Of a DNA stretch of 29,108 nucleotides, positions 8,363-9,721 are shown one piece after another. Under the pieces are notes generated by a model, which ran no database searches, was not told the origin of the DNA, and was given only the letters and a program-made list of their open reading frames with translations. The number at the start of each line of letters is the position of its first letter. The stretch's first letter is position 1. The position numbers and the translations under genes were made by a program. This DNA is from Thermomicrobiales bacterium (GTDB lineage: Bacteria > Chloroflexota > Chloroflexia > Thermomicrobiales > UBA6265): contig DASYVY010000356.1 of the NCBI GenBank assembly GCA_035936535.1, positions 1 through 29,108 on the forward strand, given 5' to 3'.

Positions 8363-9721
8363 TCACATCACTGGCTGATCCTGTGCCGCCACGGAGGTCT
8401 CGGTTTCCAGTTCGTCCCCATCGAGCGGCAAGAGATCCCCCGTCGCCTGATCGAACCTGGCCCGGAGCTCACGCTCGTAGTAGACCTCGACTACACCATT
8501 GGCAAGATCAACGTCGACTTGGCGCCGGAGAAGATCGTCAGACAACGGCCCGTAGTTCCGGCCACTCACGTTGATCATGCCATCGGCCTGCACGGCTCGC
8601 GGCTGCCGTCCCTGCCATCCAAAGTCCGGCATCATGTCGCTGGCCGACTCCCGAGCCGAACGGAAAAACTCGCCTCCCGCTTCCAGCAGCGACTCCGGTC
8701 CCTTGATGTCGATTCTCCAACCCGTCAGCTTGTAGGCGAGGCGGGCATTCTGCCCTTCCTTGCCAATGGCCAGCGACATCTGGTCGCTTGGCACGATTAC
8801 CGTGGCGATACGCTGGTCCCCCGACTCGTCCAGCGAGACGTTGGTCGGCTTTGCCGGGCTCAGGGCGTTCGCGATGAACGTCGCCGTATCGGACGACCAC
8901 TCGATGACATCGATCTTCTCGCCATAGAGCTCGTTGACGATATTCTGAATCCGGACACCTCGCACGCCGACGCAGGACCCAACCGGATCGACTTTCTCCT
9001 GGCGGGCGGCGACCGCCACCTTGGACCTCAGTCCCGGCTCGCGAGCGATCTCCATCAACTCGACGGCGCCCGTCTGCATCTCCGGGACTTCCTGCTCGAA
9101 CAAGCGACGAATCAGGCGCGGATCAGATCGCGAGACGATGAGCTGCGGTCCCCGCGCATGGCTGTTGACTTCGGTAAGCAGCACCTTGATGCGCTGGTTG
9201 GGACGGTACCGTTCGGTCGGGACCTGCTCCCGGGCCGGCATCACGGCTTCTGCCTTGCCGAGTTCGATGATCACCGCGCGGTTGTCCGCACGCTGGACGA
9301 CGCCGCTAAGGACCTCGCCTTCCTTGTCCTCATATTCCTTGAACACCGATTCGCGCTCGTAGTCACGGATTCGCGTGTGAACTACCTGCTTGACGGTTTG
9401 GGCGGCGATTCGGCCAAAATTGTCAGGCGTCTTCCGAATCTTGACGACGTCTCCAATGACTGGAGCCGCGGCATGTTCCGCCGCATCGGCGAGGCTGATC
9501 TGCACATCGGGGTTCGTCACCGGATCGGCAACGGTCTTGAGGACCACGACCTGCATCTCACCGGTCGCCTGGTCCAGTTCGACGACGACTTCCTCTTCTG
9601 AGCCAGTTGCTTTCTTGTAGACAGATGTCAAAGCTTGCTGGACTGAAAGGAGCACCGCATCACGCGGAATTCCGCGCTCCGCGGCTATCTGGGCGATCGC
9701 GGTATAGAGATCGCTCTTCAT
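8363..9721 (-). CDS. nusA: Transcription termination/antitermination factor NusA with C-terminal extension (452 aa)
   Basis: FGRIAAQT.KQV, AREPGLRSKVAV, VDPVGSCVGVRG, ELYGEKIDVI, SLAIGKEGQNARLA; ATG 9721 with GAGGAGG SD. Confidence 0.98.
   Translation of the reverse strand: MKSDLYTAIAQIAAERGIPRDAVLLSVQQALTSVYKKATGSEEEVVVELDQATGEMQVVVLKTVADPVTNPDVQISLADAAEHAAAPVIGDVVKIRKTPDNFGRIAAQTVKQVVHTRIRDYERESVFKEYEDKEGEVLSGVVQRADNRAVIIELGKAEAVMPAREQVPTERYRPNQRIKVLLTEVNSHARGPQLIVSRSDPRLIRRLFEQEVPEMQTGAVELMEIAREPGLRSKVAVAARQEKVDPVGSCVGVRGVRIQNIVNELYGEKIDVIEWSSDTATFIANALSPAKPTNVSLDESGDQRIATVIVPSDQMSLAIGKEGQNARLAYKLTGWRIDIKGPESLLEAGGEFFRSARESASDMMPDFGWQGRQPRAVQADGMINVSGRNYGPLSDDLLRRQVDVDLANGVVEVYYERELRARFDQATGDLLPLDGDELETETSVAAQDQPVM
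8450..8602 (-). other. Transposase C-terminal (Mu-transpos_C-like) beta-barrel domain inside the NusA extension
   Basis: PRAVQADGMINVSGRNYGPLSDDLLRRQVDVDLANGVVEVYYERELRARFD matches by eye the R-x-V-x-x-D-G-x-[IV]-x3-G-x2-Y...L-x3-x-V-x-V...V-E-[IV]-Y-x3-E-L-x-A pattern of DDE transposase C-termini; no HMM run. Confidence 0.6.

Follow-up and report, generated by a model that had tools for sequence, protein, structure and literature searches.

The nusA gene and its C-terminal extension

The window, a stretch of 29,108 nucleotides from a Thermomicrobiales bacterium, carries on its minus strand a nusA gene whose product continues beyond its core into an additional C-terminal segment. The source genome is a fragmented MAG (667 contigs, 77% complete). 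The features of the locus are as follows.

8363..9721, minus strand: nusA coding sequence, 452 aa plus stop; TIGR01953, 386.2 bits against a cut-off of 253.4
8702..9721, minus strand: NusA core NTD-S1-KH1-KH2, residues 1-340, ending in LTGWRIDIK (Pfam, TIGR01953, AF2)
8615..8701, minus strand: acidic flexible linker with a short helix, residues 341-369 (pLDDT, charge)
8420..8614, minus strand: six-stranded beta-barrel, residues 370-434 (PF22483, hhalign, AF2 fold)
8366..8419, minus strand: disordered acidic tail, residues 435-452 (pLDDT <50, net charge -5)
7977..8348, minus strand: ylxR (DUF448), directly 3' of nusA (PF04296, E 3.7e-26)

NusA is a universal and usually essential elongation factor. 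The assignment of the protein to TIGR01953 was borne out by a score above the curated cut-off and by the domain order NTD-S1-KH1-KH2; Pfam likewise found NusA_N, S1, KH_5 and KH_NusA_C in order, and the core was modelled by AlphaFold2 (AF2) with a pLDDT of 75-94. The gene starts with the ATG at 9721 (MKSDLYTAIAQI), which is common to all orthologues and agrees with the 452-aa database copies of the protein, and it ends with the TGA at 8363-8365. The operon order nusA-ylxR-infB, conserved for NusA, is kept here. As the earlier note had read, a Shine-Dalgarno sequence of ylxR directly follows the stop: GGGAGG is seen at 8356-8361, 3 nt past the nusA stop, and the gene behind it encodes a PF04296 protein. 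No Pfam-recognisable rimP was found directly upstream of nusA. The upstream region contains a 160-aa ORF without Pfam match (10704-11186, minus strand) as well as a divergent gene (10084-10716, plus strand) for a membrane-anchored protein rich in proline and threonine with a weak SH3_3 match.

Past LTGWRIDIK, the reading frame continues for exactly 112 residues (8366-8701), and the stretch PRAVQ...RARFD corresponds to extension residues 34-84, i.e., 8450-8602; the length and the coordinates given in the earlier note were both exact. The linker has a net charge of -4 and a pLDDT of 43-66 in the full-length model, and its GPESLL..FFR motif is kept within Thermomicrobiales. In an AlphaFold2 model of the extension alone, extension residues 31-92 form a barrel with pLDDT >90; the helix before it is modelled with low confidence, the tail behind it is disordered, and the model is all-beta past the short helix. 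In the full-length NusA model the pLDDT of the barrel is 83-88. The high pLDDT of the barrel against the low values of the linker indicates that the barrel is, as modelled, a separately folded domain on a flexible tether. The last 18 residues, described in the earlier note as an acidic tail, indeed have a net charge of -5. Despite a pairwise identity of 0.17, which leaves the sequence unconstrained, an acidic tail was found in all class members seen. The net charge of the barrel itself is -1 to -3, depending on the boundaries chosen, with a pI of about 4.7-5.1 and a class mean charge of -1. Among 35 diverse orthologues the extension has 28 invariant columns. Within Thermomicrobiales, the extension's arginines R32, R35, R59, R60, R77, R80, and R82 show little or no variation, and R-x-V at strand 1 is nearly invariant in NusA barrels across the class.

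The absence of E. coli-type AR1/AR2 helix-hairpin-helix (HhH) domains, as well as of a DDE core or IS ends nearby, had been asserted before and was confirmed. No HhH or AR family of Pfam matched NusA, even at E values up to 10. No rve/DDE domain was detected in nusA or across the 77%-complete assembled genome, which also contains no second PF22483 match, and no IS-like inverted repeats flank the extension. GC content is even at 0.60-0.66 along nusA, with no anomaly.

Relationship of the extension to transposase barrels

The only Pfam match of the extension is PF22483 (Mu-transpos_C_2; 19.2 bits, E 1e-3, profile positions 11-65 of 73), a score below the gathering threshold of 27 bits. The same family was matched by all 35 diverse orthologous Thermomicrobiales extensions (best E 2.7e-6), and the Chloroflexales-type NusA tails of class relatives exceed the cut-off with 27.7, 31.4, 34.2, and 40.2 bits. 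One relative's tail also passes PF09299 (Mu-transpos_C), a family that links MuA/TnsB-type barrels with the NusA tails of the relatives. Precomputed Pfam annotation already marks PF22483 on one relative (P0045).

For profile-profile comparison, 23 NusA barrels from ten class families, the copy described here included, were aligned without gaps (A5), and seven barrels were excised from local transposases (A2). Six of the transposases behind A2 were scanned with Pfam; PF22483 was found in 6/6 and an rve core in 4/6. The hhalign comparison of A5 with A2 gave a probability of 97.0% (E 8.7e-11, 52 columns), whereas a Thermomicrobiales-only profile (A1) yielded 3.6% against A2 and no significant match. 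Significance was reached only after Chloroflexales-type and tandem-type NusA barrels had been added. Since A1 alone is not significant, the Thermomicrobiales branch has diverged, and its homology to the transposase barrels is transitive via the Chloroflexales-type NusA. A Y-x-x-P turn and the strand pattern are common to NusA and transposase barrels. HMMER searches of PDB sequences with A1, A2, and A3 gave nothing useful. A profile search of 1.84 billion representatives returned 28 matches, nearly all of them NusA fragments. Three metagenomic proteins (P0130, P0134, and P0141) carry a NusA-type barrel behind unrelated N-termini, one molybdopterin-oxidoreductase-like and another membrane-protein-like; chimeric contigs or calls with frameshifts are the probable explanation, although the proteins could represent further non-NusA contexts. 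Two apparent carriers were dismissed as false positives, namely the repeat-containing protein P0131 (1549 aa; compositional) and a Verrucomicrobiota MAG match from a single-protein scan, which is a PAS domain.

The AF2 core adopts the small six-stranded barrel fold of the MuA 488-560 / IstA 300-355 type; residues 488-560 of MuA (1BCM, 4FCY) are its domain II-beta. The best five PDB matches in Foldseek are IstA (8B4H, 8Q4D) and ShCAST TnsB (7SVW). VIA-align Z-scores are 7.2 and 7.1 for IstA and 6.5 for TnsB 7SVW, with the next match at 4.2, and IstA superposes with an rmsd of 1.8-2.0 over 53-58 residues at 23-24% identity. In a Foldseek-independent scan of 48,161 PDB representative chains, IstA, ShCAST TnsB, Tn7 TnsB, the MuA transpososome, and the MuA core occupied ranks 1, 2, 3, 5, and 7, the matches to MuA and TnsB having Z-scores of 4.6-5.5, and none of the KOW, SH3, or Tudor proteins in the scan outranked the transposases. 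For a domain of 60 residues, modest Z-scores such as these (5-7) are to be expected; the consistent enrichment for one domain across four transposase families goes beyond chance. Among AFDB fold clusters another NusA came first, followed by many IS21-like transposase C-terminal domains, and the ESM Atlas neighbours comprise NusA clusters (Thermomicrobiota, Chloroflexota) together with rve and IS21 transposases.

Taken together, the profile, profile-profile, and fold evidence assigns the segment to the family of domain II-beta barrels known from Mu, IstA, and TnsB. The likeness to transposase barrels seen by eye in the earlier note is thus substantiated by the PF22483 match, the hhalign probability of 97%, and IstA, TnsB, and MuA as top folds. 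The C-terminal barrel of IstA (8B4H, 8Q4D; residues ~300-355) is the best structural match; it belongs to PF22483 and is tethered flexibly like the NusA barrel. It comes after a DDE/RNase H catalytic domain, whereas the NusA barrel comes after KH2, and only the NusA barrels carry [YFL]-G-P-L and R-K-V-R at strand 1. Domain II-beta of MuA (1BCM, 4FCY) and TnsB (7SVW, 8AA5, 9BW1) has the same fold in a transpososome context.

The barrel described here does not stand behind an rve domain; it is a member of the domain family and yet not a transposase. A domesticated transposase retains the DNA-binding and/or catalytic core, and here only the accessory barrel was found. The domestication proposed earlier consequently stands insofar as a transposase-type domain was captured, and needs qualifying insofar as no transposase was. 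“Captured transposase-type domain” therefore describes the finding accurately.

Distribution, age, and selection

The extension is present, at 65-100% identity, in more than 120 NusA clusters, which are from Thermomicrobiales or Chloroflexota where named. In the family of the window, all 29 nusA-bearing genomes align through residue 434 or beyond (28/28 without the unpublished G440); the sole family genome without a nusA match is 74% complete. The unpublished genomes G408, G425, and G440 were counted in tallies only and were excluded from alignments, trees, and dN/dS. The GTDB class concerned holds Thermomicrobiales, Chloroflexaceae, and Herpetosiphon, and 44 of its 45 sampled genomes matched A5 at E 1e-14 or better. 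At every class locus inspected the barrel lies in frame after the NusA KH2 motif. Named carriers are Chloroflexus spp., Oscillochloris trichoides DG6, Herpetosiphon geysericola DSM 7119, and H. giganteus DSM 589. Among 355 genomes from other classes of the phylum no A5 match was better than 1.6e-7. The five out-of-class ORFs that were read showed no NusA KH2 motif; in 4/5 the barrel motif stands late in a 357-499-aa frame, and both of those scanned with Pfam are rve transposases.

The barrel is kept in 10/12 class families sampled. Families f1, f2, f3, f4, f6, f86, and f87 have a single barrel and f8 and f85 two in tandem, and in f5 the A5 matches fall in NusA-size frames. The exception among the 45 class genomes is f7, in which NusA ends in low-complexity tails of 35 or 76 residues; short-tailed NusA proteins (f7 and other classes of the phylum) share the NTD-S1-KH1-KH2 core but have tails of 6-76 residues and no barrel. 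A tree of NusA cores with five out-of-class roots was a polytomy in which loss in f7 and a split before the gain were not separated. The tandem tails, 180-217 residues long, comprise two barrels with acidic linkers between them and are located as follows.

L043:1045-1677, L047:1483-2109, L049:591-1205, L050:1036-1686: tandem-barrel NusA tails, family f8
L030:1123-1689, L033:1246-1788, L034:1138-1704: tandem-barrel NusA tails, family f85

In a tree of 35 barrels, a single branch with a support of 82/91 split the 23 NusA copies from ten transposase barrels, and copies 1 and 2 of the tandem barrels formed separate clades within each family. The tree is unrooted and compatible with one capture. 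The distribution of the barrel suggests that the donor was a transposase rather than another barrel-bearing protein. The dN/dS (Nei-Gojobori, 28 family genes) was about 0.14 for the core, about 0.28 for the barrel, about 0.46 for the linker, and near 1 for the tail; the dS values, about 1-2, are saturated, and these rough estimates serve only to rank regions. These results demonstrate that the fusion is old, stable, and under purifying selection across the class. The earlier note had called it a stable fusion and not a fresh insertion, and the retention of the barrel across the class with a dN/dS of about 0.28 agrees with this. It had also named the outcomes that would speak against it, i.e., no profile or structural similarity, a disordered segment, or absence from close relatives; on each of these points the opposite was found, as the similarity exists, the core folds confidently, and the relatives keep the barrel.

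Three other explanations of the extension have to be weighed against this picture. The likeness could be convergence, the segment being a generic SH3-like small barrel without transposase descent. The sub-threshold Pfam score of the copy described here, the 3.6% of A1 against A2, Z-scores of 8 or less, and the fruitless HMMER searches of PDB sequences speak for it; nevertheless, convergence is quite improbable in view of the 97% hhalign probability obtained with the class-wide profile, the relatives passing the Pfam gathering score, the five of the top seven ranks among 48,161 chains that are held by four transposase families with KOW, SH3, and Tudor proteins all below, and the common Y-x-x-P turn and strand pattern. 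It is very improbable that NusA carries the extension as a mere passenger, a functionless spacer or remnant that is tolerated: f7 does without the barrel and other classes of the phylum have short tails, but retention in 10/12 class families, a dN/dS of about 0.28, 28 invariant columns, and a tandem duplication of which both copies are kept in two families all point to a selected domain. An assembly or annotation artefact, for which the fragmented state of the MAG could be cited, or a recent IS insertion into nusA can practically be dismissed. Genomes that are closed or nearly so have this architecture in frame as well, and it is shared by orthologous clusters, family genomes, and cultured strains, which refutes both; there is also no rve domain, inverted repeat, or GC shift that would betray a recent insertion.

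Possible function of the captured barrel

In E. coli the position after KH2 is occupied by AR1/AR2, which are acidic, tethered flexibly, and lineage-specific like the barrel. AR1/AR2 are helix-hairpin-helix domains, whereas the NusA tail described here is an all-beta barrel with no HhH signal. Regulators and phage proteins act at such lineage-specific C-terminal modules of NusA, AR1/AR2 in E. coli being the example; AR2 binds the alpha-CTD of RNAP and auto-inhibits RNA binding. The KOW barrel of NusG/RfaH is likewise small and tethered to a universal elongation factor, and it acts by docking alternative partners (S10, Rho). The likeness of mechanism is an analogy, and neither Pfam nor the PDB scan gave a sequence match or a top-ranking fold match of the NusA barrel to KOW. 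E. coli NusA AR2 also binds the NusG-NTD (PMC4937328). In the transposases, the IstA barrel docks into a cleft of IstB, an AAA+ ATPase, and lends stability to the tetramer of the transposase, while the barrels of the upper IstA subunits touch the transposon ends (PMC11208146), and TnsC is engaged by TnsB through its barrel (PMC11208146, PMC10122671).

The barrel was captured long ago, in all likelihood once, and it is now a fixed and selected part of NusA in nearly the whole class. We consider it probable that it functions as a tethered protein-docking or auto-inhibitory module. Via its flexible tether it would dock a protein partner at the elongation complex; alternatively, the barrel and the acidic tail may fold back on NusA's own S1/KH surface. 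Either way, it may provide lineage-specific tuning of NusA recruitment or RNA binding from the position of AR1/AR2. Docking is favoured over generic nucleic-acid binding because the module is acidic and tethered and because the IstA and TnsB barrels dock partner ATPases. The earlier note had suggested a nucleic-acid- or partner-binding module; partner binding holds up, and the nucleic-acid role is the weaker option, as the module is acidic and the IstA barrel mainly docks proteins (PMC11208146).

As the main alternative, by analogy to MuA II-beta, the barrel could be a nucleic-acid-binding module for nascent RNA or upstream DNA that extends the S1-KH RNA path. The seven invariant or nearly invariant extension arginines in Thermomicrobiales, the nearly invariant R-x-V at strand 1 class-wide, and the contacts of the upper-subunit IstA barrels with transposon ends (PMC11208146) would fit such a role. 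Yet the barrel is neutral to acidic, the acidic linker and tail on either side would repel nucleic acid, and the second barrel of the tandem forms has a net charge of 0 to -7 (-4 to -7 in f8), so that nucleic-acid binding appears possible but unlikely. In a more far-reaching form of the docking proposal, the barrel would keep the ancestral docking of an oligomeric ATPase or dedicated partner and would wire Chloroflexia NusA to a lineage-specific factor, e.g., Rho, a helicase, or a ribosomal component. We regard this as a doubtful extrapolation, somewhat less likely than nucleic-acid binding. If true, a fragment of a mobile element would have given rise to a hitherto unknown input that acts on pausing, on termination, or on transcription-translation coupling, and the tandem-barrel forms would bridge two partners. 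The VIA alignment pairs model residues 29-87 with IstA 298-356 almost without gaps, which may put Tyr343 and Arg345 of IstA at the conserved Y74-Y75-E76-R77 of the extension, give or take about one residue.

The N-terminal extension of Rho was considered as a co-varying partner. Within the class, the Rho open frames of five genomes (L118-L122) measure 420-647 aa, and the long N-terminal extension is patchy. Three genomes with the barrel have frames of 420-474 aa, two without it frames of 513-647 aa. The Rho extension was therefore rejected, since it does not travel with the NusA barrel.

A lineage-specific C-terminal module of NusA is of a known kind; what was captured here is a single domain, not a transposase. 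To our knowledge, the capture of mobile-element protein domains by core bacterial machinery has rarely been documented. In the literature searched, no description of a NusA with a transposase-type barrel was found, in line with the earlier remark that the architecture was not recognised as described. The fusion is visible in databases and apparently undiscussed in that literature. The whole class, including the cultured models (Chloroflexus, Oscillochloris, Herpetosiphon, Thermomicrobiales), fills the AR1/AR2 position with a different, selected module. This offers a testable handle on elongation and termination in Chloroflexia, where little is known, and it provides a second biological context for the II-beta barrel which could clarify what this domain generally recognises.

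Related barrels were also seen outside NusA. In genome G279 (family f6), a gene at L089:2202-2699 (minus strand) encodes a protein of 165 aa that starts with a transmembrane helix, continues with an acidic linker, and ends in a NusA-type barrel, which carries the YGPLP signature and matches A5 at E 9e-16 and PF22483 with 32.7 bits. The protein is a paralogue of the NusA barrel that stands alone and is anchored in the membrane; the NusA of G279 carries a barrel too. In f7, a weak barrel of the Mu-transpos_C_2 type (26.7 bits) occurs in a 249-aa protein (L041:1090-1836, L044:1345-2091) that lacks rve and NusA domains. Finally, at L113:2338-3348, in class f14 of the same phylum, NusA has a tail of 277 residues with a weak HhH match (HHH_5, E 1.4e-3). 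The classes of one phylum may thus fill the position after KH2 with either AR-like HhH repeats or a barrel.
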